Source: a virus
Lineage: Duplodnaviria; Caudoviricetes
DNA: 64,000 bases
Direction: 5' to 3' (one strand)
IMG/VR virus record: IMGVR_UViG_3300036833_000307
Span: 38,564 to 102,563 of that record
Shown here: piece after piece, positions 2,899 through 31,529 of the stretch
Layout of the letters: each line of letters begins with the position of its first letter
Position numbering within the stretch: position 1 is the stretch's first letter
Position numbers and translations under genes: made by a program
Notes under the pieces: model-generated
What the model saw: the letters and a program-made list of their open reading frames with translations, nothing else
The model's database searches: none
What the model was told of the DNA's origin: nothing

Positions 2899-3116
2899 CC
2901 TTCCGCAACCGGATCGGCCGGTCGGTCGAGAGCGTCACCCAGCCGGTCGATAGCAGCGGTCATTCCCGCAATGGCGCGAGCGATGGCGAACAGTCCATCG
3001 GCCACGTTGGCGGAGACTGTATCGGTGCCGCGGGGATCTTCGTAGGGGCTGACAAAGGCGTCGTCGATCGCCGTTGCGATGGTCTCGAGAGGGGTCACGA
3101 GAGCATCATCGGCCAT
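2895..3116 (-). CDS. hypothetical protein
   Basis: 73-aa acidic ORF preceded by GGAG. Confidence 0.55.
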   Translation of the reverse strand: MADDALVTPLETIATAIDDAFVSPYEDPRGTDTVSANVADGLFAIARAIAGMTAAIDRLGDALDRPADPVAEG

Positions 3117-3699: not shown

Positions 3700-4050
3700 T
3701 GCGTGAGGGTCAGGACCGGCCCGGAGGGTTTGCAGCCTCCGGGTTGGTCCGCTGATCCAACCCCTTCGGTCGACCAGCGTCAAGCATCCGAACCCCCCCC
3801 TCAAGCCCCGCGCGCGATTCGCGCGCGGGCGCGCGCGCGCCCCCCACTAAAGGGGGGGAGGACCAACGGACCAGCGGACCAAAAACGCCCCTTGGAGAGG
3901 CGTTTTGGTCCGGTTCTGGACCAGCAGAAGTTGTTGATTTCATTGACATATTCGGACCGTAGCTTCAGCTTGCTTCATTGTTACGGTCCGGGACGGACCA
4001 GTTCGTTAACGGACCAGTCCAATGAAGCAAGGGACCAGCCCGGGACCGTA
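3700..4050. other. candidate replication origin (GGWCC iteron-like cluster, GC palindromes, AT-rich core)
   Basis: about 13 GGACC/GGTCC copies in both orientations in non-coding DNA just downstream of the helicase; C8/G7 runs flanking a CGCGCG palindrome; AT-rich segment 3928-3952. Confidence 0.55.
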
Positions 4051-6961: not shown

Positions 6962-7022
6962 CTTGTGCCGGATAGTTATCCCCAGGCTTATCCCCCAGAA
7001 ACATTGAGCAACACTGCCGTGA

Positions 7023-7080
7023 GTTCCTGAAACCCGCTCGGGTCTCCGGGCGGAATTCCCCGCCCGGGTAGACAAGGAAC
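7023..7080 (+). ncRNA. three-way-junction leader element, copy G (permutation II)
   Basis: gttcct-GAAA-ccc/ggg-TC-9 bp stem-TAGACA-aggaac; ATG at 7089. Confidence 0.6.
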
Positions 7081-7088
7081 CACTCATC

Positions 7089-7574
7089 ATGGCCTCATTG
7101 TTCCAGGTTCATAAGAACTCTGGCGACATTGTCGCGGTCAGCGCCCGCACCATGCTGGGCATGCTGGCCGATCCCTATTCGGCCGCGCGCCTGATGCGCG
7201 AGCTGGCGTTCGATCGCGAGGTCGAGGTCGAGCTGCGCGACGGGCCGGCCAAGGTCAAATACGCTGACCCATTACCCAAACGGCAGCGCGAGCTGCCGAT
7301 CATCCCCTACGATGCTCAGGTGAACCTCGTCTTCGTGCTGCCGGCGCTGGTGAAGTGCCGCGCCAGTTCGGAGATGGAGGCCAAGCACACCATCGAGGAA
7401 ATCCTGCTGCGCGCCGGCCGCTGGCCGAGCGACGGCTTCGATCTCATTCTCCGGCCCGAGGACCTGAAGGCGTTCATTGAAAGTCTGGAGATCAAAAGCA
7501 CTCTGGCGATCCAGGACGTCGAATTCCTCAACGTCTATCCATGCAAGCAGCTGACCCACGAGCGGAGGACCTGA
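7089..7574 (+). CDS. hypothetical early protein
   Basis: 161-aa ORF, AAGGA RBS. Confidence 0.7.
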   Translation: MASLFQVHKNSGDIVAVSARTMLGMLADPYSAARLMRELAFDREVEVELRDGPAKVKYADPLPKRQRELPIIPYDAQVNLVFVLPALVKCRASSEMEAKHTIEEILLRAGRWPSDGFDLILRPEDLKAFIESLEIKSTLAIQDVEFLNVYPCKQLTHERRT

Positions 7575-7576
7575 CC

Positions 7577-8134
7577 ATGCTGATGTCGGTATTCCGCCAG
7601 GGCCAGCCCACGCTGCAGATCGACCACCTGGTCGCCATACGCGAGGCGGTCGATCCGGATCACGCCGGCATGGTGTTGCACGCCTGGACGCAGAACGCGA
7701 CCGTATTGATCGGTCTGCGTTCCGGCGAGGCGATCATCAAGCCTGCCGCCGACGGCGATGAGCAGCTCAGCTTCGAGGCGCTCTATGACACCTGCATTTC
7801 GCTTTCGCAGTGGAAGCAGATGAAGGCTCAGCGCGTCGTCAAACCTGAGGACCTCGCACCGCATCTCTACGAGCTCGATGTTCTGCTCGAACAGGCTCGT
7901 CCGGTGCGTGTGCGGCTGCGCATTAAAGCCAAAACAACCACCGAAGTAAGTCAGCTTCTCAATCGCTTGGTCCGTGAAGACAAAGAATTTCAGGATAGCT
8001 TGATGGCGAAGCTTACCGAGGCGTTGTTGATACAGGACGACGGCTCGATCATTTCTACTTCAGTACACAAGGTTGAGCACGTTGCGCCTGGAGATGCGCC
8101 GCTCTGGTCGTTCGTCCCAGAGGAACCTGGCTGA
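7577..8134 (+). CDS. hypothetical early protein
   Basis: start MLMSV at 7577 after GGAGG. Confidence 0.7.
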   Translation: MLMSVFRQGQPTLQIDHLVAIREAVDPDHAGMVLHAWTQNATVLIGLRSGEAIIKPAADGDEQLSFEALYDTCISLSQWKQMKAQRVVKPEDLAPHLYELDVLLEQARPVRVRLRIKAKTTTEVSQLLNRLVREDKEFQDSLMAKLTEALLIQDDGSIISTSVHKVEHVAPGDAPLWSFVPEEPG

Positions 8135-8151
8135 TGGCTCGGAAACCGCGC

Positions 8152-8297
8152 TTGCATTTCCAGTCCATGCCGCTAGACTGCATTTTGTCGGCTCGACGCG
8201 GCATGGCGCGACTTGGCCAGTCCCGGCTCGGCTTGGCAGGCACGGAGAAGCAGGACCCAGAAGCACCATGCCGCTTCCGGGTCCTGCGCTCGGTTTT
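8152..8297 (+). ncRNA. promoter-pentamer repeat-hairpin unit E1
   Basis: TTGCAT-N16-TAGACT; pentamers 8191-8245; hairpin 8250-8287; TTTT downstream. Confidence 0.65.
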
Positions 8298-8304
8298 CCG
8301 CACA

Positions 8305-8368
8305 GTGTCTTTCGCACGCCATCCTGGTGTGCGGCAGAGAGCCCGCTGTTCAACGGGTAGAAAGACAC
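8305..8368 (+). ncRNA. three-way-junction leader element, copy A (permutation III)
   Basis: gtgtcT-T-stem-CAGAGA-stem-aGAAAgacac; ATG at 8376. Confidence 0.7.
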
Positions 8369-8375
8369 CAAAAAT

Positions 8376-9197
8376 ATGTCTGATATCGTAAGGATGTTAT
8401 CGAACCCGCTGGCAAAATCCGCATCCCAAACCGATTTCTTTCTCCTTACATTGGCGGAATGTGCAAAATTCGGCGTGCCGCCGCAGGCGCTTGCGCTGCT
8501 GCGCGATGTGCATAGCATGTTGGGATATTCCAAACCGCTCGGCGAAAAACAGATCAGCGCCCTGGCTGGGCCGTTGGTGGCGTGGCGCACCGATCCCCGG
8601 CAGCCGCATTTCGAGCGCGTTGTCGATCTCGAACGGCTGGCCTTTCACCAGCGCGCGCTGATCGCCTTTGGCGGCGGCAAACCTGGCGAAATGGTGGGCC
8701 GTGCCGAGATCGTATACGCGATGGGAAATCTGCTGCACGGGACCTCGCCGCCGGAATACTACGAAGTATTCCAGTGGGCCTCCGTCGATACGCTCGCGGA
8801 GATCGAGGGAGACAGCAAGGCGAAAATCCTGGCCGACCGTGAAAAGGACGGCTGGACAGCCGTCGCCGATGCGGAAGTAACCCAGCCCGGTGGGCGGCTC
8901 TACGCCACCTACCAGGAAATCTGCACGTCGATCCGCCGCGAGGCAATCGCCGGACTGGAGCGGAACCCGGCGGGGCATCCACGCAACATACTGCGGCCAA
9001 TGGCCGCTCTGGCCATCGCCAACCATGCCCGGATCAAACAGGAACTCCTCGCCGAGGGGCGTCCCGAAGTGGTGGAGACACTCGACCGCACGATCGAACA
9101 GATCCGCGGCATGTTTCCTGGTCTTGGCTCGTTGGACGATGAGCTCAAGCGGCGCAACCAGGCCGCTCTCAACGAGGTCCTGGAAGAACTCCTGTGA
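8376..9197 (+). CDS. hypothetical early protein
   Basis: 273-aa ORF with globular composition. Confidence 0.75.
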   Translation: MSDIVRMLSNPLAKSASQTDFFLLTLAECAKFGVPPQALALLRDVHSMLGYSKPLGEKQISALAGPLVAWRTDPRQPHFERVVDLERLAFHQRALIAFGGGKPGEMVGRAEIVYAMGNLLHGTSPPEYYEVFQWASVDTLAEIEGDSKAKILADREKDGWTAVADAEVTQPGGRLYATYQEICTSIRREAIAGLERNPAGHPRNILRPMAALAIANHARIKQELLAEGRPEVVETLDRTIEQIRGMFPGLGSLDDELKRRNQAALNEVLEELL

Positions 9198-9241
9198 GCC
9201 TCGCGGATCCCGGTGCGCAAGCACCGGGTTCCGGTCCGCCA

Positions 9242-9302
9242 TCCCTATCGCCGCACTCATTGTGCGGCGGCAGAGAGCCGGCTGATACCGGCGCAAGGGA
9301 GG
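9242..9302 (+). ncRNA. three-way-junction leader element, copy B
   Basis: tcccT-A-9 bp stem-CAGAGA-gccgg/ccggc-GCAAgggagg; ATG at 9307. Confidence 0.7.
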
Positions 9303-9306
9303 CCTT

Positions 9307-9594
9307 ATGGCTAAACCAACGAAGTATCCACGCAGACTGCGGCGAACCCTCGAGAAGGTCGCCGACGGCCGGCGGGAGCGGGAAGCCAAAGCGGCGGCGG
9401 AGGACGATGTTCCACCGCTGTTCCGATCGTTCTACCAGTCAGGATTTCTGACCCAGGTGCAGACGATCCATACCCGTTTCAACGACGCGGCAACGCAAGC
9501 GACAACCATCTATCAGTTGCATCCGTTGCCGGCGAACCGGCGTATTTTCGTGCCGCCGCCGTGGATCCTAAAACCCAAAAGCGACGCGTCCTGA
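9307..9594 (+). CDS. hypothetical early protein
   Basis: 95-aa ORF, GGAGG RBS. Confidence 0.65.
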   Translation: MAKPTKYPRRLRRTLEKVADGRREREAKAAAEDDVPPLFRSFYQSGFLTQVQTIHTRFNDAATQATTIYQLHPLPANRRIFVPPPWILKPKSDAS

Positions 9595-9607
9595 GAGGGG
9601 CGCGCTG

Positions 9608-9664
9608 CTTATCCCGCAGCTTCCTGCGGGGCAGTCGAGCCGACGCTGCTCAGTCGGCGAAAGG
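9608..9664 (+). ncRNA. three-way-junction leader element, copy C
   Basis: ctT-A-8 bp stem-CAGTCGA-gccgac/gtcggc-GAAAgg; ATG at 9672. Confidence 0.65.
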
Positions 9665-9671
9665 AAACCCC

Positions 9672-9887
9672 ATGCGGAAAATCATGCGAATGATGCGCGA
9701 CGCCTGGCGGGCTGGGCGGTTGCCCGAGCCATTCAACGTACGCGCCTTTCGTACGGCCTGCCCAGGTCTCGCCGCCACGACCTACCCGACGTTCCTGGCG
9801 AAGCACGCTAAGGACAATCCGGGTGGTAACTCGACACGGTTCAAGCGTGTTTCACGTGGCTGGTACCGTTTCTACGATCATGAATGA
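9672..9887 (+). CDS. small basic protein, possibly winged-helix DNA-binding
   Basis: start MRKIM after AAAGGA; FLAKH...NP...F.RV.RG.YR. Confidence 0.65.
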   Translation: MRKIMRMMRDAWRAGRLPEPFNVRAFRTACPGLAATTYPTFLAKHAKDNPGGNSTRFKRVSRGWYRFYDHE

Positions 9888-10071
9888 TCGGGACCGCGCG
9901 CAGTGGGTCGACAACGACGAGGGCCTGTATCGCTGGTGGCGCCAACACCGCCAGAGCAAAGCCGCCTTCATTCGCGCTAACCGCGCCGAGATCGACGAGA
10001 TCATCGGCAAGATCCAACGCGGCGAACATAAGCCGCATTACCTAGCCTACCCGCCTACGCGCAAAGCGTAG
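9880..10071 (+). CDS. hypothetical phage protein
   Basis: MNDRDRAQWVDNDEGLYRWW..., overlapping the upstream gene. Confidence 0.65.
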   Translation: MNDRDRAQWVDNDEGLYRWWRQHRQSKAAFIRANRAEIDEIIGKIQRGEHKPHYLAYPPTRKA

Positions 10072-10074
10072 GCG

Positions 10075-10130
10075 CCTTTCGCACGCAGCATGCGTTGCGG
10101 CAGAGAGCCGGTCTGCCAACCGGCGCAAGG
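10075..10130 (+). ncRNA. three-way-junction leader element, copy D
   Basis: ccT-T-stem-CAGAGA-gccggt/accggc-GCAAgg; ATG at 10143. Confidence 0.7.
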
Positions 10131-10142
10131 AAACCCCATATA

Positions 10143-10364
10143 ATGGCCAGTCCATTCGACTATGACCTCGACCTCAACCTCGACGCAATGGCCGAGGAAG
10201 ACCTCGAGGCCTGCGCGAACCATCTGACAACGATGGTCGATTATTGCTCGCACAAGCTCCTGGCAATGCGGCAACGCAAGATCGGTCGCATCCAGGATGC
10301 GCTCGACAACGAGCGCGCATGCGAGCTGATCTACCAGCGCATCCCCGCCAACTGGCGGTGGTGA
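10143..10364 (+). CDS. hypothetical early protein
   Basis: start MASPF after AAGGA. Confidence 0.65.
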   Translation: MASPFDYDLDLNLDAMAEEDLEACANHLTTMVDYCSHKLLAMRQRKIGRIQDALDNERACELIYQRIPANWRW

Positions 10365-10398
10365 TCCGCGCAAAACCAACGCCTGCGCAACGCAGGCG

Positions 10399-10450
10399 TC
10401 TCTCGCTTGATTTCAAGCGGCAGAGAACCGGTCTGATCACCGGCGAAAGA
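10399..10450 (+). ncRNA. three-way-junction leader element, copy E
   Basis: tcT-C-stem-CAGAGA-stem-GAAAga; ATG at 10454. Confidence 0.7.
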
Positions 10451-10453
10451 ATA

Positions 10454-10702
10454 ATGATGAGCAACGAACGCAGCGCCGAGGCGGAGGTCCGCAATCCGCT
10501 CCTCAGCCTGCCGGCGATGCAGAAAATTCGGGCACTTCCGGCGCCGGCGCGCCAGGCGCTCGCGGAACTCCTGGTGGAGCTCCACAGCGATGCCGAGCGT
10601 CGGGCGCAGGTCGCCTGGAACCGCAGCAAAGCACCGATGGCGGCGTACTGGAAATCGGTCGCCGTCTATACGCTGCACATCCACCGGGCGCTGCGAAAAT
10701 AG
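10454..10702 (+). CDS. hypothetical helical protein of mobile-element type
   Basis: RNPLL.LP...L..L..DA..RA..AW...KAPMAAYWK.VAVY. Confidence 0.7.
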   Translation: MMSNERSAEAEVRNPLLSLPAMQKIRALPAPARQALAELLVELHSDAERRAQVAWNRSKAPMAAYWKSVAVYTLHIHRALRK

Positions 10703-10707
10703 CGCCC

Positions 10708-10767
10708 GGCTTTCGTGCAACAGCCTGTTGCACGGCAGAGAGCCGGTCTGCTCACCGGCGAAAGACC
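10708..10767 (+). ncRNA. three-way-junction leader element, copy F
   Basis: cT-T-10 bp stem-CAGAGA-gccggt/accggc-GAAAg; ATG at 10775. Confidence 0.7.
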
Positions 10768-10774
10768 CCATTCC

Positions 10775-10981
10775 ATGACCAAACCCGACAAGTCGGCCAC
10801 AGCGCGCGCGCTGGAGCGGTTTTTGCGGCATATGCTGGCCGGCAAACGGCCCGCCACGCTCAACGCCTGGCACAAGCTGGGTAATGAGTTGCAACTGGAG
10901 CCACTGCCACCAGCCGAGGAAGTCCTCGAGGTGCTGTCAGGCTTTTCACTGTCGCGCACCATGGCCGAAAAAACCGACTAA
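10775..10981 (+). CDS. hypothetical early protein
   Basis: start MTKPD directly after element F. Confidence 0.55.
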   Translation: MTKPDKSATARALERFLRHMLAGKRPATLNAWHKLGNELQLEPLPPAEEVLEVLSGFSLSRTMAEKTD

Positions 10982-11043
10982 TGCCGAACCTCGCGCTCTG
11001 CGGAGCCGAGGCTCCGGGCAATTCCGCCCGGGCAGAAGAGGCA
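10982..11043 (+). ncRNA. three-way-junction leader element, copy H (permutation II)
   Basis: tgcc-GAAC-stem-G-C-tccgggc/gcccggg-CAGAAGA-ggca; ATG at 11050. Confidence 0.7.
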
Positions 11044-11049
11044 CGACAG

Positions 11050-11241
11050 ATGAAGATCACCACCGATCTTTACACCGGGAAGCCGTTCCGCTGGAACACC
11101 ACGGTTTTGCATCGGGCACCCGACGGCAAACTTACCACCGTGCCCGCCCGCAGCACATCGCGTAGTAGTACCTGGCTGCATCCTTCACGGGTGCCGGCGG
11201 CACTGCTAGCCGAATTGAACCCGGACAAGACCAAACCCTGA
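11050..11241 (+). CDS. hypothetical small protein
   Basis: start MKITT after GAGG. Confidence 0.55.
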   Translation: MKITTDLYTGKPFRWNTTVLHRAPDGKLTTVPARSTSRSSTWLHPSRVPAALLAELNPDKTKP

Positions 11242-11242
11242 A

Positions 11243-11309
11243 CGTGCCGAACCTCGCGCCGGAAAGCGGCCGGGGTTCCGGGCAATCAAGCCCGGGCAGA
11301 AGAGGCACG
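11243..11309 (+). ncRNA. three-way-junction leader element, copy I (permutation II)
   Basis: cgtgcc-GAAC-stem-G-T-tccgggc/gcccggg-CAGAAGA-ggcacg; ATG at 11315. Confidence 0.7.
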
Positions 11310-11314
11310 ATCAA

Positions 11315-12067
11315 ATGTCGAAATCTGTCGCTCCGCGTCAGCCTCTCGATGAGCTGGCGCGGGCGTTGAACTCGTTCGACCACCGCCACCGCATCGACGA
11401 GATCTTTTTCAACTGGCTGGAAATGAGCGCGATCGCGATCTCCAACGCGGTCGACCGGGCTCAGTACGACAAACGCGAGGCCCGCTACATGGCCATCGTC
11501 GGCAACTATTCGCGCGACGAGGCGCAACTGCTGGCCGAGATGACGGGCATGCTCTGGCTCGCGATCGCCAGAGGCGGTGCCCCGCTCAGCGAGCTGATGA
11601 CCAGGCTCGAGCTTGGCAGCAAGGCGATGAAGAGCCGGCTCGGCCAGTTCTACACGCCATTCAACGTTTCCTACATGATGGCGAAAATGCTGCTCCAGCC
11701 ACGCGACCAACTGGTCGAAGAGATTAAGGCGAAGGGCTACGTCACCATGATGGAGCCCGCATGCGGTGCCGGCGGTATGGTGCTTGCGTTCGCACAGGCA
11801 TTCGAGGAAGCCGGGTTCAACCCCCACACTCAACTGTACGTTGCCGCGGTCGACATCGATCAGGCCGCAGTGCACATGACCTATCTGCAGATTGCGATGC
11901 TCAGCATTCCCGCTGTCGTCTTCCAAGGCGATAGTCTTCGCGTCAACACTTCGGCGCACTGGCTGACCCCGGAATATGTTTCCGGCCGCTGGAACCTCCG
12001 CCTCAACGGCGAGACACCCAAGCCGGTTCCCGGGATTGCCCGCTGGAGCATCCGCCAGCAGATATGA
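11315..12067 (+). CDS. orphan N-6 DNA methylase family protein (short HsdM-like)
   Basis: GQFYTP, MEPACGAGGM, VDID and GDSL motifs; no NPPY-type catalytic motif visible. Confidence 0.8.
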   Translation: MSKSVAPRQPLDELARALNSFDHRHRIDEIFFNWLEMSAIAISNAVDRAQYDKREARYMAIVGNYSRDEAQLLAEMTGMLWLAIARGGAPLSELMTRLELGSKAMKSRLGQFYTPFNVSYMMAKMLLQPRDQLVEEIKAKGYVTMMEPACGAGGMVLAFAQAFEEAGFNPHTQLYVAAVDIDQAAVHMTYLQIAMLSIPAVVFQGDSLRVNTSAHWLTPEYVSGRWNLRLNGETPKPVPGIARWSIRQQI

Positions 12068-12069
12068 CC

Positions 12070-12111
12070 AAACCCCCGAGGCTTCGCGCCTTGGGGGTTT
12101 TATTTTATTTT
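12070..12111 (+). terminator. intrinsic terminator
   Basis: AAACCCCCGAGGC/GCCTTGGGGGTTT stem followed by a T-rich tract. Confidence 0.85.
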
Positions 12112-12312
12112 GCACTGTTGCGTGGGAGGGGTAAACCGGAGTAAGCTGGCTGATCCTGATAGGAAGTCGGCTGATGTCGTTCCTGTTGTCCCGCCCGGGT
12201 TATCCCCCAGCTTATTCGTCCTGGCCCATCGCCGCGAAAACCCGTCACACCAATATAGACTACGGGAGCACGGAGGTTGGCTATGCCCGAACCACGACGG
12301 CGGTCGGGGCGG

Positions 12313-12456
12313 ATGACCATTCGCGAGGCGACGGTCGAGGTCGCGACTATGTTGCTCGGCACCGCCATCGGGTTGGTTATCGTCCTCGGCTTGGCTTACT
12401 GGTTAGGTCGCCACTTTCTCGTGGCCTTCCTGGGCGCCGTATCCGGACACTACTAG
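12313..12456 (+). CDS. 47-aa putative membrane peptide (below the ORF-track size cut-off)
   Basis: manual translation MTIREATVEVATMLLGTAIGLVIVLGLAYWLGRHFLVAFLGAVSGHY*. Confidence 0.4.
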   Translation: MTIREATVEVATMLLGTAIGLVIVLGLAYWLGRHFLVAFLGAVSGHY

Positions 12457-12500
12457 TCCGGGTACGGTGTTCCATCGTTTATGTGGTCTATGAAAATGTT

Positions 12501-12660
12501 TTGAGTTTAGTGGAAGATCGGCTAAGCTGTAGGCGCGGCTCGTCTAAGCCCGACATGGCAGGCTCGGCAAGACAAGGCACGGCGGGGCTCGGCATGGCCG
12601 GGCTTGGCAGGCGCGGCCTATGGACCCGGAGGAAACCTGCCTCCTCCGGGTCTTCGCTTG
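12501..12660 (+). ncRNA. promoter-pentamer repeat-hairpin unit E2
   Basis: TTGAGT-N16-TAAGCT; pentamers 12533-12616; 10-bp hairpin 12623-12652. Confidence 0.65.
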
Positions 12661-12690
12661 TACCCTTCGCTTCGATCGGAGGTTTGAGCA

Positions 12691-13494
12691 ATGAGTGAAG
12701 ATCCAACATTGCCGAGGTTCTTCCCGCCGGAGGGTGCGCCGAAGGTCATCCAAGCCATTGTCGAAGTCATGCGGAACATCCCGGCGGTTCCCAAAAGTGG
12801 CCGCAATCTGGAGCAAAAATATAACTACGTCGAAGCAACCGTCCTGACCGCAAAAATCCAGGATGCGATGATCAAGGCCGGCCTCGTTCTGGTGCCACGC
12901 GAGCTTTCGCGTTCAGTACAATCCGGTATTCTGTTTATTCGTTTTGCCTTTGATGCGCACAGTGGCGATCAGTCGATTTTTGCCATCGGAAATTTTACCG
13001 GAGCATGTCGTTTCCAGTTTCAGCGTAGTGGCGCGTTTGACGACAAAGCGGCAAATAAATGCCTCACGACCGCGCTTAAACAATTCGAAATCGCATTGTT
13101 TAAAATCCCGGCTGATGTTGCCGATATAGAACGGGATGAAGAGGTGCGCGAACCTTCGGGACGCGGCGACGGCCGAGACAACCCGCCCGATGAACCGCCG
13201 GATGACCGGCCGCCGCCGCACGACACCGCACCAGATGACCAGCCACCCAGCGATGATGGCCCGCCGGACGACGAGCCTGTCGGCGATGCCGAACCGGGCG
13301 ACGAAGCTCCAGTCGACTTCCAGACCCGGGTGCGCGAATTCGCCCAGCGGCTGAAGACGGCGCAGAACCAACGCGAAGCCGACGCGCTGTGGAGCGACGA
13401 AGCGGTCATGCTACGACAGTGCAATGACACCACGTATCGCTGGCTGGCCGATGCCTACGAAGGCCGCTGGAATATCCGTCCCCCGAAAGTATGA
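12691..13494 (+). CDS. ERF-family single-strand annealing recombinase
   Basis: VPKSGRN..QKYNY...K....M...GL...DKA.NK..T.ALK...LF.IP; adjacent to ssb. Confidence 0.75.
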   Translation: MSEDPTLPRFFPPEGAPKVIQAIVEVMRNIPAVPKSGRNLEQKYNYVEATVLTAKIQDAMIKAGLVLVPRELSRSVQSGILFIRFAFDAHSGDQSIFAIGNFTGACRFQFQRSGAFDDKAANKCLTTALKQFEIALFKIPADVADIERDEEVREPSGRGDGRDNPPDEPPDDRPPPHDTAPDDQPPSDDGPPDDEPVGDAEPGDEAPVDFQTRVREFAQRLKTAQNQREADALWSDEAVMLRQCNDTTYRWLADAYEGRWNIRPPKV

Positions 13495-13509
13495 GGAGAG
13501 GAACAAGCT

Positions 13510-14109
13510 ATGGCTGGGCTGAACAAGGTCCAATTGATCGGCAACCTGGGCGCTGATCCCGAAATGCGCACCACCCAGAATGGCGACAAGGTCGTCAACT
13601 TGCGAGTTGCCACTTCAGAGACCTGGAAAGATCGGCAAGGCGAGCGCCAGGAACGCACCACCTGGCACCAGGTGGTGATCTGGAACGAGAACCTTGGCGA
13701 CGTCGCTGACAAGTATCTGCGCAAAGGTTCCAAGGTCTATCTCGAGGGCTCGCTGCAAACCCGCAAATGGACCGACAAGGACGGCCAGGACCGCTACACG
13801 ACCGAGGTCGTGCTGCAGCGCTTCCGCGGCGAACTGGTGATGCTGGACAGCCGCCGTGACGACGATCGCGACGACGATCGCGGCGGCCGGGACCGCGGCG
13901 GCAGCCGTGAGCGCGACCGTGGCGACAGCCGGGACCGTGGCCGCGATGACCGTGGTGGCGGGCGTGACGATCGCCGGGACAGCTCCCCGGCACGTGGCGA
14001 TACCAACGGCAGCGGCCGTAGCCGCGAGGGGCCGCTCGGGGGTGGCTATCGGCCGGGTGGCCGAGGCACCCAGAGCGCGCCCGACCTGGACGATGAAATA
14101 CCGTTCTAA
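13510..14109 (+). CDS. ssb: single-stranded DNA-binding protein
   Basis: [17 protein letters not shown]-fold start and DLDDEIPF acidic tail. Confidence 0.97.
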
Positions 14110-14133
14110 TCTCCCTGCCGCAACAACATAGCC

Positions 14134-14604
14134 ATGATCCTCATTCCTTGTCAAGAATGCGGGCTAAGGAAACGGAGGGTCGAGTTCCCCCCGCGCATCG
14201 GGAGGTACAAGCGGCGATGCAGAGCATGCATCGCTCGCTTGATGGGGCGGCTGGGCCCGGATGGCTATAGGCGACTGTTCGAGGATGAGCGCCTGCACGA
14301 TCCACATCGCGTCGCTATGCGAGACGCCTATCGCAAGACGGCTAACGGCCAAGAGCGGCTGACTGCCGGCAAGATCGCTTGGATCGCGCGCAACCCTGAG
14401 AAGCGCCAGTGCCACGTCATCTTCGGCAATGCGCTGCGTGACGGCAAGATCGAGCGCCAGCCCTGCCAACGCTGTAGCAACCCGAGATCCCATGCCCACC
14501 ACAAGGACTACTCCAAGCCGCTGAAGGTCCGCTGGTTGTGCGCGGCGTGTCACAGCGCTTTGCACAAGCGTGAACGAAGGAGAATTGCCAATGCCGATCA
14601 GTAA
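14134..14604 (+). CDS. HNH-like Zn-binding nuclease
   Basis: CQEC...CRAC; CQRC...HAHHKDYSKPLKVRWLCAACH. Confidence 0.7.
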   Translation: MILIPCQECGLRKRRVEFPPRIGRYKRRCRACIARLMGRLGPDGYRRLFEDERLHDPHRVAMRDAYRKTANGQERLTAGKIAWIARNPEKRQCHVIFGNALRDGKIERQPCQRCSNPRSHAHHKDYSKPLKVRWLCAACHSALHKRERRRIANADQ

Positions 14605-14851
14605 CGCCGAACGGCTGGCCCAGGCGGTGCTGCTGTTCCATCGCGGCGGCCCGTGGACGGCCTTAGACAGCGGCCACTGGCTGGCGCTGACCGGCAAGGT
14701 GGACTGCACCACCAAGGTGCTCTGCGACCTTGCCCGCCGCATCCTCGAGACCGCCGAGCGTGAGGTAGTGATCCAGCTACCGTTGGAGCCATTGAGCGAT
14801 GCGGACATCCGGCAGGCCGCGCTAGGCCCCCTGGAATGGAAGCAGCGCTGA
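14591..14851 (+). CDS. hypothetical protein
   Basis: start MPISN after AAGGAG. Confidence 0.6.
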   Translation: MPISNAERLAQAVLLFHRGGPWTALDSGHWLALTGKVDCTTKVLCDLARRILETAEREVVIQLPLEPLSDADIRQAALGPLEWKQR

Positions 14852-15087
14852 TGCCGCGCTGGTCTGAGGTCGTCACCATCACCCTGCCGGACGGCACACA
14901 GGCTCAAGCCATCGTCTGTGGCAGCGGCAAGCGTCCGCGTACGCCGCGCTGCCGCTGCGGCCGGACGTCGAGCATCCAGTGCGACTTTCCGCTGCTGGAT
15001 GGCAAGACCTGCGACCAACACCTGTGTCGCTCCTGCGCCGTCCCGGTCGGGCGCAACCGCGACTACTGCCCCGAGCATCCACGGTGA
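14851..15087 (+). CDS. Cys-rich Zn-finger protein
   Basis: CRCG...CD...TCD..LC..C...DYCPEH. Confidence 0.65.
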   Translation: MPRWSEVVTITLPDGTQAQAIVCGSGKRPRTPRCRCGRTSSIQCDFPLLDGKTCDQHLCRSCAVPVGRNRDYCPEHPR

Positions 15088-15479
15088 GTACCACCCGCCG
15101 CACCCCTCGTTACGAGGACGTCCAGCCGGTCAAGGACCTCGTCACCAACGAGGAGATGTACGAGGCGATGGTCTACATGGACCAGAGCCCGCACGACTAT
15201 GCCGAGGCGGTCGCTGACGCTGAGTACGCCGCGTACAAAATCCGCATGGCCGAGGCAGTCGGCATCCTCGTGTCGGGCGAACGGAACGCCGCCCGCCAAC
15301 AAGCTGATGCCCGCACCTCGCAAGCCTATGCCAACGCCGTTGAGGACAACCGCCGCGCGCAGATGCAAGCCGAGATGATGAAAGCCAGGCGCGCCGCTGC
15401 ACAGTTGAAAATCGAGGTATGGCGAACCCTTCGCGCCGACCAACGCGCCCGGGATGTGTCCGAACCAGGAAGTAGATGA
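15084..15479 (+). CDS. coiled-coil protein, possibly a recombination accessory factor
   Basis: GTG start coupled to the upstream stop; Ala-rich helical ORF ending IEVWRTL. Confidence 0.55.
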   Translation: MSTTRRTPRYEDVQPVKDLVTNEEMYEAMVYMDQSPHDYAEAVADAEYAAYKIRMAEAVGILVSGERNAARQQADARTSQAYANAVEDNRRAQMQAEMMKARRAAAQLKIEVWRTLRADQRARDVSEPGSR

Positions 15480-15490
15480 TGACGCGTGCG

Positions 15491-15638
15491 AAAAGGGCTC
15501 TCCAGCCTAAGCCGAAGAGCCCCGTGCCGCGTCCGGCGTTGCCACGTCCTGCCAAGCCTCGTCTCGCCGCAGCATGTCATGCCTGGCCGTGTGTGGCATA
15601 GGCACATCACGATATGCCACATTTTTTATCCTTGGCAA
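15491..15638 (-). ncRNA. promoter-pentamer repeat-hairpin unit E3 (antisense to flanking genes)
   Basis: minus strand: TTGCCA-N16-CATATC (or N18-TATCGT), pentamers about 15587-15523, hairpin 15522-15495, TTTT. Confidence 0.65.
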
Positions 15639-15648
15639 CGGTTCGCTG

Positions 15649-15999
15649 ATGCCCTGCCGCGACTGTAATCACTGGAACCGGGTTCCGGTCTGCGCTGCCC
15701 TCGAGCGCTTTACCCCCGGCTGGTGTGAAGTCCAGCACCGTGCGGTATTCCCGCACTATCACTGCCCCAGGTGGGTACAACGCGAGGTCACCCACGCCGA
15801 GGTCGGCCTCACCCGCGACGAAGTCGCCTGGGCGCGCCAGCATCGTGACGACCCATCGGTTCGCGCCCTCAACTTCCTGTTCCGCCGCATCCAGTTCCAG
15901 CCGCAGAACCCCGCGATCCGCGCGGAATTCACCACGACGCTGGAAATCTGGCGCAGCAAGCGACGTATCGCATTCGGTCAACCGGAGGAAATGCCATGA
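15649..15999 (+). CDS. hypothetical protein with N-terminal Cys cluster
   Basis: MPCRDCNHW...GWC...HCPRW. Confidence 0.55.
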   Translation: MPCRDCNHWNRVPVCAALERFTPGWCEVQHRAVFPHYHCPRWVQREVTHAEVGLTRDEVAWARQHRDDPSVRALNFLFRRIQFQPQNPAIRAEFTTTLEIWRSKRRIAFGQPEEMP

Positions 16000-16253
16000 G
16001 CGGGACCGGCTTCCCCGAAGGTTTCGCTATCGTTCATGCCGGACAACTCTACCGACCGATTGGCACCCGGGAATTCGTCAACACCAAGGGTCAGCGGGTG
16101 ATGTGCATCGACTGGCGTTCGGTCTGTCCGGAGTGCGGTGAGGCTTTCACCCTCACCACCGGCCGGCGCTGGCAGCGCCCGCACGCACGCCGTTGTCCGG
16201 GTTGTCGAGCGCCGGGCCAAGCGGTGCAAGATGCTCGTATCGGGCAGCGATAG
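15996..16253 (+). CDS. Zn-ribbon protein (paralog of 3391-3684)
   Basis: WRSVCPECG..F....RRCPGCRAPG. Confidence 0.65.
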   Translation: MSGTGFPEGFAIVHAGQLYRPIGTREFVNTKGQRVMCIDWRSVCPECGEAFTLTTGRRWQRPHARRCPGCRAPGQAVQDARIGQR

Positions 16254-16279
16254 ACCCTATATAATAAGCCGCAACGATC

Positions 16280-16340
16280 TGCCTCCCGGCCCGAGCATCG
16301 GTGACCGGCAGTGAACCCGGCTGCTCCCGGGGGAAAGGCA
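16280..16340 (+). ncRNA. three-way-junction leader element, copy J
   Basis: tgccT-C-stem-CAGTGA-cccgg/ccggg-gGAAAggca; ATG at 16346; TATAAT at 16260-16265 just upstream. Confidence 0.6.
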
Positions 16341-26227: not shown

Positions 26228-28291
26228 CTAGCTCACCATCACTGGCCCGATCAGCGCGGCATTCACCGCCGCTGACGTCCACGTCGCACTGGTCGCCGGG
26301 TCCGTCTGATCAGTACGCCACAGCCAACTCCAGGACGTGGAGAGGGGAGTGGTCGGTGAGGCGACAGTCGTCCCGAGAATCCCGAAGCCAGCGTTAAACC
26401 CGCCCGGCACCGAGAAGGCGAAAGCGGTGGCCCCGAAGTTGGCGGTGACCCCTGCGTTCTGCTGTCCACCGCATGTGGCGTAGAGCGCCGCCGTGGCGAC
26501 GCCGGAGATGTCAAAACCGCCGGTGCCGGTCGCCGGGTTGGCGGTGCCGGAGTTGTTCCAGTTGCCCGCGTTCAGCCGGAACCAGATGAGCTTGGCGCTT
26601 AGATCAACTGCGATCTGTATGATGTCCCCGTTGACTGGGCTTACCCCAAAATTAGCGGTGAGGCTGGTCCCGACGTACACGAACCCGGACCCCAGGAACA
26701 TAACTGTCCCGGCGACGGGGGAGCCTGTCCCGATAGTCGCGATGGATGCGAGACTTACACTCGCCAGAGCGAGCCCGAGTGATGAGTTGGACGGGCTGTT
26801 TACCCGCATTTCCAGATAGTATTTGCCGCTGCTTGCGCCGAAGATCGAGCGTACGGCCGAGTTTGTCGTTGTCCCCGCGAAGGTCGCCGTGAGGTTGCCG
26901 CCGGACAGCGTGGTGTTCAGCTGGTCCGATGGGTTCCATGTCGTCGTCGTGGCGCCGGATTTGAGCTGCACCGCTCCGCTGCGCGTGCCCGCGTCGGATT
27001 TCTCCGCGAACCCGCGTGTGGTCACGGCGACCACGCTGGCTAGCGTCGCGCCTGCGGCGGCGATGGTGTAGAAGTCGGCGTCGCCGGGGTTGGCGTCGTA
27101 GATGTAGCTCGTGACGCCGTCCTGCTGCGGCTCGCTGACCAAGGTAGCGTTGCTGGCAACCGTCAGCGTCCATGAGCAATTTGGCCCACTGTTATTGCCA
27201 CTGGTCGCCGGGAACGCGGTGGGAAACGTCGCGTAGGATGCGCCGCCCTGTAACACGCCGGTGGCCAGGGGTGAGATGTTCCAGGATCCTGATAACGTGT
27301 CTGACATGAAACCAATCCAATATTGCGTGCCTCTGCTGACAGTGACCGGAGTGGAAAACGTGAAGGTATTGTTCCCGGTTGCGGGGTTGACGATTGGTGT
27401 GGCGCTCCCGAGGATCGTTGTCGGCGCTGTAGCGGGTCCGGCAAAGATCGTGCATTTCATGTTGCCGGTGTAACCCGTTGCCATCGACAGGATGACGGAA
27501 GCGACGGTGCCGTCGTAAGCTGCCGTCAGTGGAATGTAACGCGCTATCGTATTGCTGACGGGTGATGAGCTACTTTGACCGGTTGATTGCACGACAGAAG
27601 ACAGGCTGCGCGTGAACAGCGTGCTCACGTCGCTCGCCGGCATCCGCGTGTAGCACCTGATGTCGCCGACCCACGGCACGTTGGCGCTGTCGCTGCGCCA
27701 GAGCAGGTCGTCGAGCAGTTGGTTTGCGGGGGTGATATTTGCCCCCACGCTAAGACGGTTGGCGTAGTTGTTCGCCGTACCGCCGCGTGTGTTGAGCGAC
27801 CCGAGCACGTGGTCGTTGCTGGTGTTGCCGTTTTTGCGCGCTGCCCAGGCACCGGTAGTGTTGTTGATGACTATCTCAAACTCGAACGCAGTCCAGACAT
27901 TCTGCGAAAAGGCCCCTGTCCATGTGTCGAGCGTCGTGCCGGTCGGACCTCCGGAAGTCAGCAGGATAGCGCCGTCTTGACGGAAAACTATGCTGCACTG
28001 AGCCGTTGCGCCATCACCAAGCGAGAAATACATACAGGCATTGGTTCCACTCAGTGCGGCCGTATCTTGGAATGCACAGACGATGTGGTGAATGGCATCG
28101 TTGGAACCGGATGACTTAATCAGGTAGATTACGGTGGAATTTGGATTATTCTGGAGTGCCCGGCTACCAGCGAAGCGTCCCGGCTGTAATGACCAGTTGA
28201 CTGCGCCAGAACCACCGTCCCAGTAGCCTGCCAGTGCGTCATTTGGCGAGGCGTAGAGATCGAAACCGTCGCCGAAGCACCAGTTCACCAT
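26228..28291 (-). CDS. tail-associated lectin-like protein (SPRY-like domain inserted near the C-terminus)
   Basis: paralog of 28293-30365. Confidence 0.7.
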   Translation of the reverse strand: MVNWCFGDGFDLYASPNDALAGYWDGGSGAVNWSLQPGRFAGSRALQNNPNSTVIYLIKSSGSNDAIHHIVCAFQDTAALSGTNACMYFSLGDGATAQCSIVFRQDGAILLTSGGPTGTTLDTWTGAFSQNVWTAFEFEIVINNTTGAWAARKNGNTSNDHVLGSLNTRGGTANNYANRLSVGANITPANQLLDDLLWRSDSANVPWVGDIRCYTRMPASDVSTLFTRSLSSVVQSTGQSSSSPVSNTIARYIPLTAAYDGTVASVILSMATGYTGNMKCTIFAGPATAPTTILGSATPIVNPATGNNTFTFSTPVTVSRGTQYWIGFMSDTLSGSWNISPLATGVLQGGASYATFPTAFPATSGNNSGPNCSWTLTVASNATLVSEPQQDGVTSYIYDANPGDADFYTIAAAGATLASVVAVTTRGFAEKSDAGTRSGAVQLKSGATTTTWNPSDQLNTTLSGGNLTATFAGTTTNSAVRSIFGASSGKYYLEMRVNSPSNSSLGLALASVSLASIATIGTGSPVAGTVMFLGSGFVYVGTSLTANFGVSPVNGDIIQIAVDLSAKLIWFRLNAGNWNNSGTANPATGTGGFDISGVATAALYATCGGQQNAGVTANFGATAFAFSVPGGFNAGFGILGTTVASPTTPLSTSWSWLWRTDQTDPATSATWTSAAVNAALIGPVMVS

Positions 28292-28292
28292 A

Positions 28293-30365
28293 TCACGTCA
28301 CCACCGTTTGGCCGATCTGCACGTTGTTCACCGCTGCTGCGGTCCAGGCCGCGCCGGTTGCCGGGTCCATCTGATCCGTGCGCCAGGCCCAGTTCCATCC
28401 AGTCGCGAGTGCTAGCGTGGGTGAAGCTACCTGGGTAGCGCCGCTTTTGAGCAGCGCGGCAGCCGAACGGCTTCCGGCATCACTCTTCTGCATGAAGCTG
28501 CGCACCGTCGTGGCGATGGTGCTGGCAGGCGTCGCGCTGAGCGGCGCAATGGTATAGAGGTCGGTATCGCCCTGGTTGACGTCGAACACGTAGCTCGTGG
28601 TGCCGTCCTCTTGCGATTCGTTGACCAAGGCGGAGTTGTTGCTGATTGCGATCGTCAATGAGCCTGCGATAGCTGAGACGCCGGACGTGACCGTTGGCGA
28701 TGCGATCGGAAACGCCGCGTATGTTGTGGCGTTCTGCGCGCCATTGACGCCGCTGCCGGTGTTGAATGTCCCCGACGATGTATCGGACATAAAGCCGATC
28801 CAGTACTGGATCCCTCTGCTAACCGTGACCGGGGTGGGAAATGTGAATGTGGAACTGCCGGTGGCCGGATTGTTGATCGGTGTGGCGCTGCCGAGGATTG
28901 CCCCAACGGTGGTGCTGGTTGGGGCGGCAAAGATCGAGCACTTCATGTTGCCGGTGTAGCCCGTCAGGAGTGAGACCGTGGCGGTGCCCACCGTGCCGTC
29001 GAATGGCGCGGTGATCAGCGAGTAACGAGCGGTTGTATTAAGGATAGTGGTGCTGCTGCTAATGGCGGTTATCTGCGTCGTCGTGCTGGCCGAGCTCTTG
29101 GTGAACTGCACGCTGGCATCGCTCGCCGGCATTCGCACGTAGCACCGGATGTCGCCGACCCATGGCACGCTGGTGGCATCGCTACGCCAAAGGAGGTCGT
29201 CAAATAGTTGGTTGATGACGATGCCAGTTCCCACCCCGAGTGAGAGCCGGCTGGCGTAGTTGTTCGTAGTACCACCGCGCGTGTTGAGCGAGCTCAGAAG
29301 GTGGTCGTTGCTGGTATTGCCATTCTTCCTTACCGTCCACGAGCCGGTGGTGTTGTGGATGACGACCTCGACCTCAAACGCGAACCATGTGCTCTGTGCG
29401 CTGACCGCGCCCGTGTAGGTGTCCAGCGCCGTGCCGGTCGGGCCGCCGGACGTCAGCACGATCGCGCCGTCTGAGCGGAACACGAGGGAGCATTGCGCGG
29501 TAGCGCCATCGCCGATGGTAAGGTACATCCCTACCGCAGTACCGCTCAGCGCTTGCGTCTGCTCGAAGGCGAAGACGATGTGATGGATCGCATCATTGGA
29601 ACCAGACGATTTTACCAAATAGACGGCGTTGCCGGCGTTTTCCTGTAGCGCTCGACTGCCGGCAAAGCGCCCGGGCACCAGGGTCCAGTTGGATCCGCCC
29701 AGACCGCTGTCCCAGTAGCCAGAGATCGCGTCGGTCGGCGTGGCGTATAGGTCGAAGCTGTCGCCGAAGCACCAGTTGACGCCGACCTTGATCGGATAGC
29801 CTGCGGTGAAACCGGCCGGTACTGTGCCGGTGAAGGCGGTATCGCCGAAATTCGCGGTGATGGTTGGTGTAGCGGCAGAGACGGTAGCGAACAGGCCAAA
29901 GATCGCCTGGGCAGCGGCAACCAGCGGAGCGATCGAGAAACCACCGGTATTGCTGGCTGGATTTGCTCCGCTGCTGCCGTTCCAATTTCCCGCTGCGCCT
30001 AAACGAAACCAGATCTGCTGGTTGATGAGGTCGAGGGCGATCCCCACGACGGTGCCGTTGCTGATCGTTCCCAGCGTCGCGAGCACGGTGGTGTTGTTGA
30101 TGGCGATTTGGCCACTAATGTTGATGACCGCGCCACCGACGCCGCTGCCGGCAACGGCGGTGAGAACAGCGCCGGCGTTGGCAACGCCAATGACATTGGC
30201 GCCGGTTATCGCGGTACAGGTGTATTCGAAGTAGAATTTCCCGGTCGTCCAGCCTTGGATCGTACGGACACCCCCGTTGGCGCTGGCAGCGCTGATGGTA
30301 AGGTTGTTCGTCCCGCTTAGCGTGACATTGGCTAGGTCGGATGGGTTCCATGTCGTGTTTGCCAT
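28293..30365 (-). CDS. tail-associated lectin-like protein (N-terminal SPRY-like domain)
   Basis: paralog of 26228-28291. Confidence 0.7.
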   Translation of the reverse strand: MANTTWNPSDLANVTLSGTNNLTISAASANGGVRTIQGWTTGKFYFEYTCTAITGANVIGVANAGAVLTAVAGSGVGGAVINISGQIAINNTTVLATLGTISNGTVVGIALDLINQQIWFRLGAAGNWNGSSGANPASNTGGFSIAPLVAAAQAIFGLFATVSAATPTITANFGDTAFTGTVPAGFTAGYPIKVGVNWCFGDSFDLYATPTDAISGYWDSGLGGSNWTLVPGRFAGSRALQENAGNAVYLVKSSGSNDAIHHIVFAFEQTQALSGTAVGMYLTIGDGATAQCSLVFRSDGAIVLTSGGPTGTALDTYTGAVSAQSTWFAFEVEVVIHNTTGSWTVRKNGNTSNDHLLSSLNTRGGTTNNYASRLSLGVGTGIVINQLFDDLLWRSDATSVPWVGDIRCYVRMPASDASVQFTKSSASTTTQITAISSSTTILNTTARYSLITAPFDGTVGTATVSLLTGYTGNMKCSIFAAPTSTTVGAILGSATPINNPATGSSTFTFPTPVTVSRGIQYWIGFMSDTSSGTFNTGSGVNGAQNATTYAAFPIASPTVTSGVSAIAGSLTIAISNNSALVNESQEDGTTSYVFDVNQGDTDLYTIAPLSATPASTIATTVRSFMQKSDAGSRSAAALLKSGATQVASPTLALATGWNWAWRTDQMDPATGAAWTAAAVNNVQIGQTVVT

Positions 30366-30380
30366 CGGATCAGGTTTCTC

Positions 30381-31529
30381 CTAGGCCACGTTCTGGATGC
30401 CAAACGTCACGTGCGTGGGACTGATCGCGTAATAGCTCACGATGTCATAGGCGTTCGGCGCCGTCGTCAGTGCGCCGGCCAGGCCGCCGAGCGGAAACCA
30501 GCTCGAGCCGAAGGTCAGCGTGCGGCTGCCGATGGCATCCTGACGCACTGCGATGTTACCATTGTCGCCGGCCATGCAATTCGCCGGATTGGCCATGGCG
30601 CGGTTGCCGCCGAGCGTCACGGTGAAATTGTTGCCGAGATTGAAGTCGATGAAGATCGAGGCGGCATCGGTCAGTGTTACCGGCGGCGTGTGCTGTCGTG
30701 CGGTCCAGGTGTTTACCGCCGATAAGACCGGCTGTCCGCCATCGCCGGTGCGGCTGAAGGAAAAGCCGAGCACCGCGCCGTTGCTGAACGGTGCGGTGGC
30801 CGAGGCGCCGATCGGAGTGACGGCGAATTCGCGATAGCCGGGCGGCGCAAACCGGTGGGTCAGGTTGAACAGTATCCACTGCGCCGTATTGATGGTGTTC
30901 CACAGCCTGATCTGGCCCATCACCGTGCTCGAGGACGCGTCCAGCGTGTCCAGCACCGAGGTCCAGTCGGTGCCGTTGTAATCCAGCAGGTCCATGTAAA
31001 TCGCGGTCGCGGCGTTTTGCGCGGTGACGTTGTTCAGCCGCAGCTTGCCATTGCCGGGATCGGCATTGGCGATCGAAGTGGCATCGAACGCGGTGAGAAT
31101 GGTGATGGCGCCGCCCGCAGCGCCGGCAGCGCCGGCAGCGTAGGCGGTGACGTTGCTGCCGTCCGATTGCAGCATTGCCGCCGAGGACGGCGGCAGCGTC
31201 GCCACCGCACCGGATGTTCCACCGACCAGCAGCGACCAGGCGGTCGACTGGTTCTGCACCATGAACACGCGATACGCCGGCAGGCCTCCGGTGGGCGTCA
31301 GCTGCGGAATGGTCAGCTTCTGCAGGTTGGCCGTCAGCCCGCTGCAGATGAATACCTGGAAGCGGCTGAACTGGGTGAAGCTCAGTGCCACCGGGCCGGA
31401 CGCGAAGCTGACCAGGAGCTGGGCGTTGAACGCCGCCTCGAGGGCGACGAAGTCGTCGTTGATCGCCGGCACCTTGTCGATCTGCGTCGGTGCGAGCTGC
31501 GGAATTTCGAGGATCGGGCTCACAGCCAT
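30381..31529 (-). CDS. putative tail fibre / receptor-binding protein
   Basis: ADPGNGKLRLNN; C-terminal TLGGNR...QDA.GSRTL.F module; located after the tail-tip genes. Confidence 0.65.
   Translation of the reverse strand: MAVSPILEIPQLAPTQIDKVPAINDDFVALEAAFNAQLLVSFASGPVALSFTQFSRFQVFICSGLTANLQKLTIPQLTPTGGLPAYRVFMVQNQSTAWSLLVGGTSGAVATLPPSSAAMLQSDGSNVTAYAAGAAGAAGGAITILTAFDATSIANADPGNGKLRLNNVTAQNAATAIYMDLLDYNGTDWTSVLDTLDASSSTVMGQIRLWNTINTAQWILFNLTHRFAPPGYREFAVTPIGASATAPFSNGAVLGFSFSRTGDGGQPVLSAVNTWTARQHTPPVTLTDAASIFIDFNLGNNFTVTLGGNRAMANPANCMAGDNGNIAVRQDAIGSRTLTFGSSWFPLGGLAGALTTAPNAYDIVSYYAISPTHVTFGIQNVA

Follow-up and report, generated by a model that had tools for sequence, protein, structure and literature searches.

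Small structured RNA elements are repeated about 22 times in the tailed-phage record IMGVR_UViG_3300036833_000307 of IMG/VR, and they very probably form a real RNA family that is related by descent to hammerhead ribozymes. Ten of the copies lie in the stretch of DNA analysed here (the window, 64,000 nucleotides, i.e. bases 38,564-102,563 of the 102,563-bp record, 63% G+C), and each of these ten stands a few nucleotides before a start codon. The element is a three-way junction of 50-80 nt made of stems III, I and II, and its strand order (stem III, the unpaired position 17, stem I, linker, stem II, GAA, stem III) is that of the type-III hammerhead, although circularly permuted copies, in which stem II closes the structure as in type-II hammerheads, occur in the same operon. 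Judging from the sequence features described below, there is about an even chance that these elements are hammerhead-derived self-processing cassettes, which would cut the transcript after position 17. Positions without a label are those of the window; G000 is the phage record and L002 the locus of that record that includes the region upstream of the window.

The secondary structure is supported in several ways. RNAalifold, applied to a MAFFT alignment that was not fitted to the structure, gives stems III, I and II and one unpaired column between III and I. Across 53 copies, 87.8% of the cells pair, against 65.5% in shuffles, both sides have changed in 174 cells (58 in shuffles), and the covariation score is 0.525, compared with 0.153 in shuffles and at most 0.105 in slid controls. 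The signal is replicated on copies outside the covariance model R1, which was built from a MAFFT alignment of 23 copies: 34 distinct metagenome rows, including five weak reverse-strand matches and none of them used to build the model, are 89.6% paired against 77.7%, with covariation of 0.295 against 0.106. The minimum free energy (MFE) fold is the three-way junction in six of the 13 copies that were folded (ten type III and three type II), the closing stem being too short in the remaining ones. Stem I opens with a U-G wobble in 42 of 61 copies, and this wobble, together with the strict co-orientation of the copies with genes, argues that the structure belongs to RNA and not to DNA.

The nucleotides around the junction also resemble the hammerhead core. 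Position 17, unpaired between stems III and I, is U in 64, C in nine and A in eight of 81 distinct copies detected by the model, and never G, and an A15.1-U16.1 pair closes stem III in all 81 type-III copies. GAA (G12 A13 A14) is present in 55 of 61 copies, GCA in five and GCU in one, with one extra base before G12 in some copies, and stem II opens with G-C in 42 of the 61. The linker between stems I and II has 6-7 nt and follows the pattern N3-N4-G5-A/U-(N)-N8-A, CAGAGA being the commonest form, with G5 and A9 almost invariant. Positions 3 and 8 are C and G in most copies, U and A in two UAGAAA copies, and G and C in about nine, the last combination being found in all GAGACA, GAGUUCA, GAGUGCA, GAGAUCA and GCGUUCA types; there are two or three exceptions in all, such as CAGAAAA and UAGACA. 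This covariation reflects few independent events, and position 3 covaries with loop II too. U3-A8 is a natural hammerhead covariation (PMC3088659), and in pairwise mutagenesis of a type-III hammerhead G3-C8 was the only double mutant of that region to rescue activity (PMC9901934). The canonical linker of hammerheads, CUGACGA, is seen in a single copy, L002:13174-13234 (G000 33073-33133, which lies upstream of the window), whose sole Rfam match is Hammerhead_3, over the full length, with 17.4 bits against a gathering score of 48.5.

A further interaction joins the linker to loop II. Linker bases 3-5 can pair with the three bases that open loop II, and both sites change together, in the following combinations:

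Linker CAG with loop II CUG: 69 of the 74 CAG copies.
Linker CGG with loop II CCG: three copies; the fourth CGG copy has ACG.
Linker UAG with loop II CUA: one of two copies.
Linker CUG with loop II CAG: the CUGACGA copy L002:13174-13234, where complementarity is retained.
Linker GAG with loop II CUC: seven copies, on at least four contigs.
Linker GCG with loop II CGC: one copy.

The middle pair of this pseudoknot is A-U in about 75 copies, G-C in four, U-A in one and C-G in one, so that all four Watson-Crick combinations occur, and among the first 61 copies the matching complement is found in six of the seven with a variant triplet (chance about a quarter for each). With the complement at the very start of the loop, an H-type pseudoknot would stack on stem II while the other three bases of the linker cross its groove. 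Given that position 3 has two covarying partners, position 8 and loop II, two alternative states are the simplest reading; a base triple of position 8 with the pair between position 3 and loop II was judged sterically unlikely, on reasoning only. The type-II copies have no loop II and two copies with a 7-nt linker (CAGACGA and CAGAUGA) lack the complement, and position 4 is still A in all of these, which means that A4 is not kept for the pseudoknot alone.

The ten copies of the window are as follows:

7023-7080, plus strand: type-II (permuted) copy with stem II as the closing stem and the order GAA, stem III hairpin, unpaired C7044, stem I, linker UAGACA; ATG at 7089; the MFE fold is the three-way junction.
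8305-8368, plus strand: type-III copy, linker CAGAGA, unpaired U8311, loop II beginning with CUG; ATG at 8376; 61.9 bits.
9242-9300, plus strand: type-III copy, linker CAGAGA, GCA in place of GAA, unpaired A9247; ATG at 9307; 60.8 bits.
9608-9664, plus strand: type-III copy, 7-nt linker CAGUCGA, unpaired A9611; ATG at 9672; 38.3 bits.
10075-10130, plus strand: type-III copy, linker CAGAGA, GCA in place of GAA, unpaired U10078; ATG at 10143; 63.6 bits.
10399-10450, plus strand: type-III copy, linker CAGAGA, after which the base of stem II has an A.C mismatch; unpaired C10402; ATG at 10454; 54 bits.
10710-10764, plus strand: type-III copy, linker CAGAGA, unpaired U10712; ATG at 10775; 64.7 bits.
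10982-11043, plus strand: type-II copy beginning directly after the stop of the upstream open reading frame, linker CAGAAGA, C-G closing stem III, unpaired C11012; ATG at 11050.
11243-11309, plus strand: type-II copy, linker CAGAAGA, unpaired U11276; ATG at 11315, the start of an N6-methylase-like gene.
16280-16340, plus strand: type-III copy, linker CAGUGA, unpaired C16285; ATG at 16346; 57.8 bits; an orthologous copy is present in the related genome G005.

These copies had been noticed from the letters of the window alone, and most of what the original prediction said of them stands. There are ten elements, each 3-12 nt before an ATG, with linkers CAGAGA in five, CAGAAGA in two, and CAGUCGA, CAGUGA and UAGACA in one each; stem I opens with U-G in nine of the ten, stems that differ between copies keep their pairing, and every one of the ten proposed cut positions is exactly the single unpaired nucleotide between stems III and I. 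The hammerhead topology that it described is present, in two circular permutations, and the core is indeed non-canonical, the CUGACGA copy outside the window being the one exception. Its count of ten is right for the window; twelve further copies upstream of the window, which it did not see, bring the record to about 22, three of them permuted; a tally by class has 18 type-III, three type-II and two divergent copies, all on the plus strand. Its first proposal, a divergent or new self-cleaving RNA family, is partly supported, by the topology, the covariation and the lack of an Rfam family, but it overlooked the pseudoknot between linker and loop II.

A search of the whole 102-kb record with R1 returns 16 type-III copies, all on the plus strand of the early region, with E values from 2e-16 to 2e-3, and nothing comparable elsewhere in the 102 kb. 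A weak match at L002:15189-15251 (E = 0.82), with linker CAGAAAA, is a real copy according to inspection by eye and a descriptor scan that demanded only two hairpins, the linker, G-N-A-A and the A-U pair. The same scan adds two divergent copies of a "GNG type", L002:11328-11406 (G000 31227-31305, GAGUUCA) and L002:12538-12608 (G000 32437-32507, GAGACA), both of which have CUC in loop II, G at position 3 and C at position 8. Relatives of the GNG type are also present in sister phages and in metagenome contigs. The type-II descriptor is very noisy, and filtering left four real type-II copies, those at 7023, 10982 and 11243 and one orthologue in a sister phage. An apparent canonical type-II hammerhead in locus L053, near position 2372, was rejected because its stem II does not form.

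The elements are part of a larger intergenic layout. In 13 of the 22 copies a GC hairpin without a U-run, of -13 to -26 kcal/mol, lies within a few nucleotides upstream and overlaps or follows the upstream stop codon. The type-II copies have no separate upstream hairpin; they begin 0-1 nt after the stop codon, and their long GC-rich stem III hairpin fills that place. The hairpins listed for the window, with the terminator of the unit, are these:

9209-9228, plus strand: GC-rich hairpin without U-run, lying after the upstream stop codon (9197) and ahead of the 9242 copy; proposed to protect the upstream product at its 3' end.
10054-10072, plus strand: GC-rich hairpin directly before the 10075 copy.
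10380-10398, plus strand: GC-rich hairpin directly before the 10399 copy.
10684-10709, plus strand: GC-rich hairpin directly before the 10710 copy.
12070-12110, plus strand: intrinsic-terminator-like hairpin with a T-run, after the methylase-like gene; likely end of the unit that holds nine copies.

The upstream GC hairpins were considered as terminators and rejected, since they have no U-runs while the phage has a classical terminator at 12070. A second classical intrinsic-terminator-like hairpin with a T-run is found at 12432-12482, also after the methylase-like gene, and the two together suggest that the phage uses ordinary terminators where its transcripts should end. No promoter-like site was found in a scan of the plus strand from 7000 to 12000; with the terminator at 12070, this places the nine copies probably in one transcript. 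Where a copy has no upstream hairpin, it tends to be preceded by a promoter-like box, as with TATAAT before the 16280 copy and its orthologue; in the 16280 copy the TATAAT-like box is about 20 nt upstream. This CAGUGA copy probably sits at the extreme 5' end of a transcript, in which case cleavage would remove the triphosphate leader. At window 16255-16270 and in locus L196 at about 1480-1500, a box reading TATAAT or CATATATA precedes the CAGUGA copy and its orthologue, respectively, by about 12-20 nt. Stretches with a 5-nt periodicity, GGC followed by two variable bases (ggcatggc, ggcaaggc), were also seen at L002:14940-15130, at about 27,400-28,300 of G000 and at about 8190-8290 of the window.

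In both permutations a purine-rich stretch resembling a Shine-Dalgarno sequence lies within the closing stem. Before 50 other genes of the phage GAAAGG does not occur, and GAAAG is found twice, GGAG 15 times, GAGG 11 times and AGGA nine times, so that conservation of GAAAG merely as a Shine-Dalgarno sequence was rejected. The GAAAG stretch probably serves as a weak ribosome site for the genes led by an element, but its conservation belongs to the element. A tRNA-like substrate of RNase P with a 3' CCA was considered as well, the CC(A)AUG context being common, and was dropped as there is no acceptor-like stem.

If the elements are self-processing cassettes, the long early transcript would cut itself after position 17. 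The upstream product would end in a stable hairpin, which would be the separate GC hairpin for type III and stem III itself for type II, and the downstream product would open with a 5'-OH and then the hairpin of stem I. The upstream piece would carry away the strand that pairs with GAAAGG or AAGAGG, the purine-rich stretch before the ATG, and so free the ribosome site. The pseudoknot would either belong to a remodelled active site or represent an alternative state, such as a lock after cleavage. The main argument is that the same cut logic is kept over two connectivities, which points to an RNA end made at position 17: in both permutations a cut at the unpaired base would remove the strand that pairs with the Shine-Dalgarno-like stretch and make a hairpin of the new 5' end, as the original prediction had reasoned for the element, and the upstream RNA would end in a stable hairpin plus a few nucleotides. 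The GC hairpins just ahead of 13 copies, and stem III in their place in type-II copies, add support to this logic.

Several observations weigh against cleavage by such a core. Hammerheads have an invariant U at position 4, where nearly all copies here have A, four have G and one has C; the common 6-nt linker, and hence most copies, is without N7; A13 is replaced by C in several copies and A6 by U in the GAGUUCA type; and C-G takes the place of A-U in closing stem III in three of the four type-II copies. The linker CUGANGA (C3 U4 G5 A6 N7 G8 A9) is not found except in one copy, and some copies lack A6 or G8. In the canonical type-III hammerhead, single and double mutants of the CUGA turn all have low activity, except for the C3G/G8C swap (PMC9901934), and the changes seen here should make a poor ribozyme of a canonical hammerhead. 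Even at E<=10, a 76-nt Rfam search with typical copies finds no hammerhead. Moreover, the pseudoknot is well supported, yet it is incompatible with a simultaneous hammerhead C3-G8 pair. In the classical active hammerhead fold loop II is far from the core and cannot reach it, so the pseudoknot cannot form in that fold, and to speak of "a hammerhead with a few core changes" would be an oversimplification.

At the gathering score, no Rfam family was found in the whole window, the upstream 38 kb or the related loci, which is the outcome of the Rfam check proposed in the original prediction, and permissive scans of single elements gave only the 17.4-bit Hammerhead_3 match of the canonical-like copy. 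The models for twister, twister-sister, pistol, hatchet and HDV-like ribozymes gave only a chance-level minus-strand match to twister-sister inside a gene (19.2 bits, threshold 34). The variant is absent from Rfam 15, and literature searches found no description of it. As far as sequence can tell, the elements share with the hammerhead family its topology, position 17, GAA and the A-U pair, and they fall outside it by linker consensus and Rfam score.

A more far-reaching possibility, which we put forward tentatively, is that the elements are a new self-cleaving class or a deeply remodelled hammerhead, in which the U-turn (U4, N7) has been abandoned and loop II pairs with what was the 5' half of the core. 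The resulting H-type pseudoknot would be either a component of the active fold or another state, in which the product is locked; this RNA would be used as a complete cassette for mRNA self-processing, consisting of a 3' protective hairpin, a ribozyme and the unmasking of the ribosome site. The departures from the consensus, being of the kind that inactivates canonical hammerheads, also fit a non-catalytic translational operator, where a reused hammerhead scaffold clamps an anti-Shine-Dalgarno-like CCUUUC on GAAAGG until a protein, a ligand or temperature opens it. The purine-rich stretch within the closing stem of both permutations fits such an operator, pseudoknots are typical of small regulatory RNAs, and the CCUUUC strand resembles the 3' end of many bacterial 16S rRNAs. 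Nevertheless, the closing stem has just 2-3 bp in many copies, too few to mask the site, and the GAG-type copy L002:11328-11406 has a real AGGAGG site outside the structure. An operator would also leave unexplained that position 17 is never G, that positions 3 and 8 covary and that a protective hairpin lies just upstream, and one regulator per gene for some 20 genes in few operons would be uneconomical, all of which makes this explanation rather unlikely.

Cleavage by a protein is improbable to a somewhat greater degree. The transcript appears to be polycistronic, and the arrangement of a hairpin, a short U-rich single strand and another hairpin, one unit per gene, fits a site recognised by an endoribonuclease of the host or the phage (such as RNase E/G or a novel phage enzyme) that would cut the single strand between the upstream hairpin and stem I, as a functional counterpart of the RNase III sites in the early mRNA of phage T7. 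Such a site, however, needs neither the hammerhead junction nucleotides and the A-U closing pair nor circular permutation and a pseudoknot. RNase III would find no long duplex here, and a scan of 28 phage proteins, a minority of the phage's genes, recognised no RNase gene. Finally, the departure of the core from the hammerhead consensus might mean that the copies are decaying relics of hammerheads, or a repeat acting as DNA (a promoter or protein-binding site), without any RNA function. This is very hard to reconcile with more than 100 copies on at least 12 contigs that keep the junction while their stems change by compensatory substitutions, with the co-orientation of all copies with genes, and with a U-G wobble at the start of stem I that makes sense in RNA only, and we regard it as highly improbable.

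Regarding the genomic setting, the record is that of a tailed phage, with tail proteins found by PHROGs and a capsid-like protein with 50% identity to Brevundimonas phage proteins, and blastn of the element region against GenBank phages gave no match. This region codes mainly for small proteins without Pfam families, and also for the N6-methylase-like protein, an ERF recombinase and SSB, while genes for a Prim-Pol and an AAA ATPase lie just upstream of it on the opposite strand. "Early or replication module" is a fair label for the region, judging from its gene content.

Outside the phage record, about 90 copies are distributed over five related IMG/VR contigs, one contig of an alphaproteobacterial metagenome-assembled genome (MAG) and six metagenome contigs. 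There are about 17 copies in IMGVR_UViG_3300036846_001176, about 16 in 3300027821_000007, six in 3300037231_000129, one in the fragment 3300005526_000008, two on the MAG contig CAWCDM010000008.1 and about 29 on the six JGI metagenome contigs. The carriers derived from IMG/VR have the capsid-like protein in common, with 69-88% identity, and they are one small clade of phages of roughly 100 kb. A pattern scan of genome contigs gave convincing matches only in the alphaproteobacterial MAG contig, among 80 loci put to the model; a covariance-model search of 151 genomes of the order of that MAG gave nothing convincing, and an unbiased pattern, which allowed any base at linker positions 3, 4 and 8, revealed no further carriers among viral contigs. 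In the sister phage G001, about seven copies (locus L046, e.g. 3004-3066 and 3879-3940) have the loop I sequence CACCAAC in common despite differing stems, which could be a tertiary contact or the result of recent duplication. On the metagenome contigs L207, L208 and L212, copies are found on both strands and head divergent gene arrays, so the element is not bound to a single operon orientation.

Some known systems produce a similar arrangement. In the early mRNA of phage T7, intercistronic structures are RNase III sites at which a long early transcript is cut into stable single-gene mRNAs that end in hairpins; there, a host protein cuts irregular long hairpins, and there is no three-way junction with a ribozyme-like core. 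Closer relatives are the clustered type II and III hammerheads of phages and prophages (PMC3088659; Rfam RF00008 and RF02276, clan CL00010), described in 2011 as arrays flanking single genes in prophages, with weak stems III and core variants (Perreault et al. 2011, PMC3088659). They have the same strand order around the three-way junction as the elements described here, and likewise one unpaired base other than G where the cut is made, GAA with the A-U pair, G-C at the base of stem II, stem III being weak, circular permutation in nature, and a location between small phage genes a few nucleotides before the start codon (PMC3088659); a covariation of position 3 with position 8 is apparently shared as well. 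In contrast to them (PMC3088659), the elements of this phage have A, G or C for the invariant U4, mostly lack N7, vary at A13 and A6, have no Rfam match and pair linker positions 3-5 with loop II in place of a contact between loops I and II. Another parallel is HHphage of the haloviruses HF1 and HF2, a core-variant hammerhead located 13 nt before the start codon of the first early gene on a polycistronic transcript, with a mapped 5' end near the cut site (PMC3088659); it differs in being a single copy with another core change, in an archaeal virus, and no pseudoknot between linker and loop II has been described for it (PMC3088659).

Cleavage by these copies would mean that the hammerhead consensus, in which U4 is invariant and the linker is CUGANGA, is too narrow, and that homology searches miss whole clades of phage ribozymes; the pseudoknot between linker and loop II would then represent a structural solution of a new kind, or else a switch between two states that is built into the RNA. 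Without cleavage, a ribozyme scaffold would have been reused for another purpose at about 20 sites per genome. The natural series should be useful for dissecting the positions of the core: it leads from CUGACGA over forms with A4 and a retained N7 (CAGANGA) to CAGAGA, with 6 nt, and the GNG types. Either way, the layout provides a testable model of how one long early transcript may be turned into many stable and translatable messages without a host nuclease.

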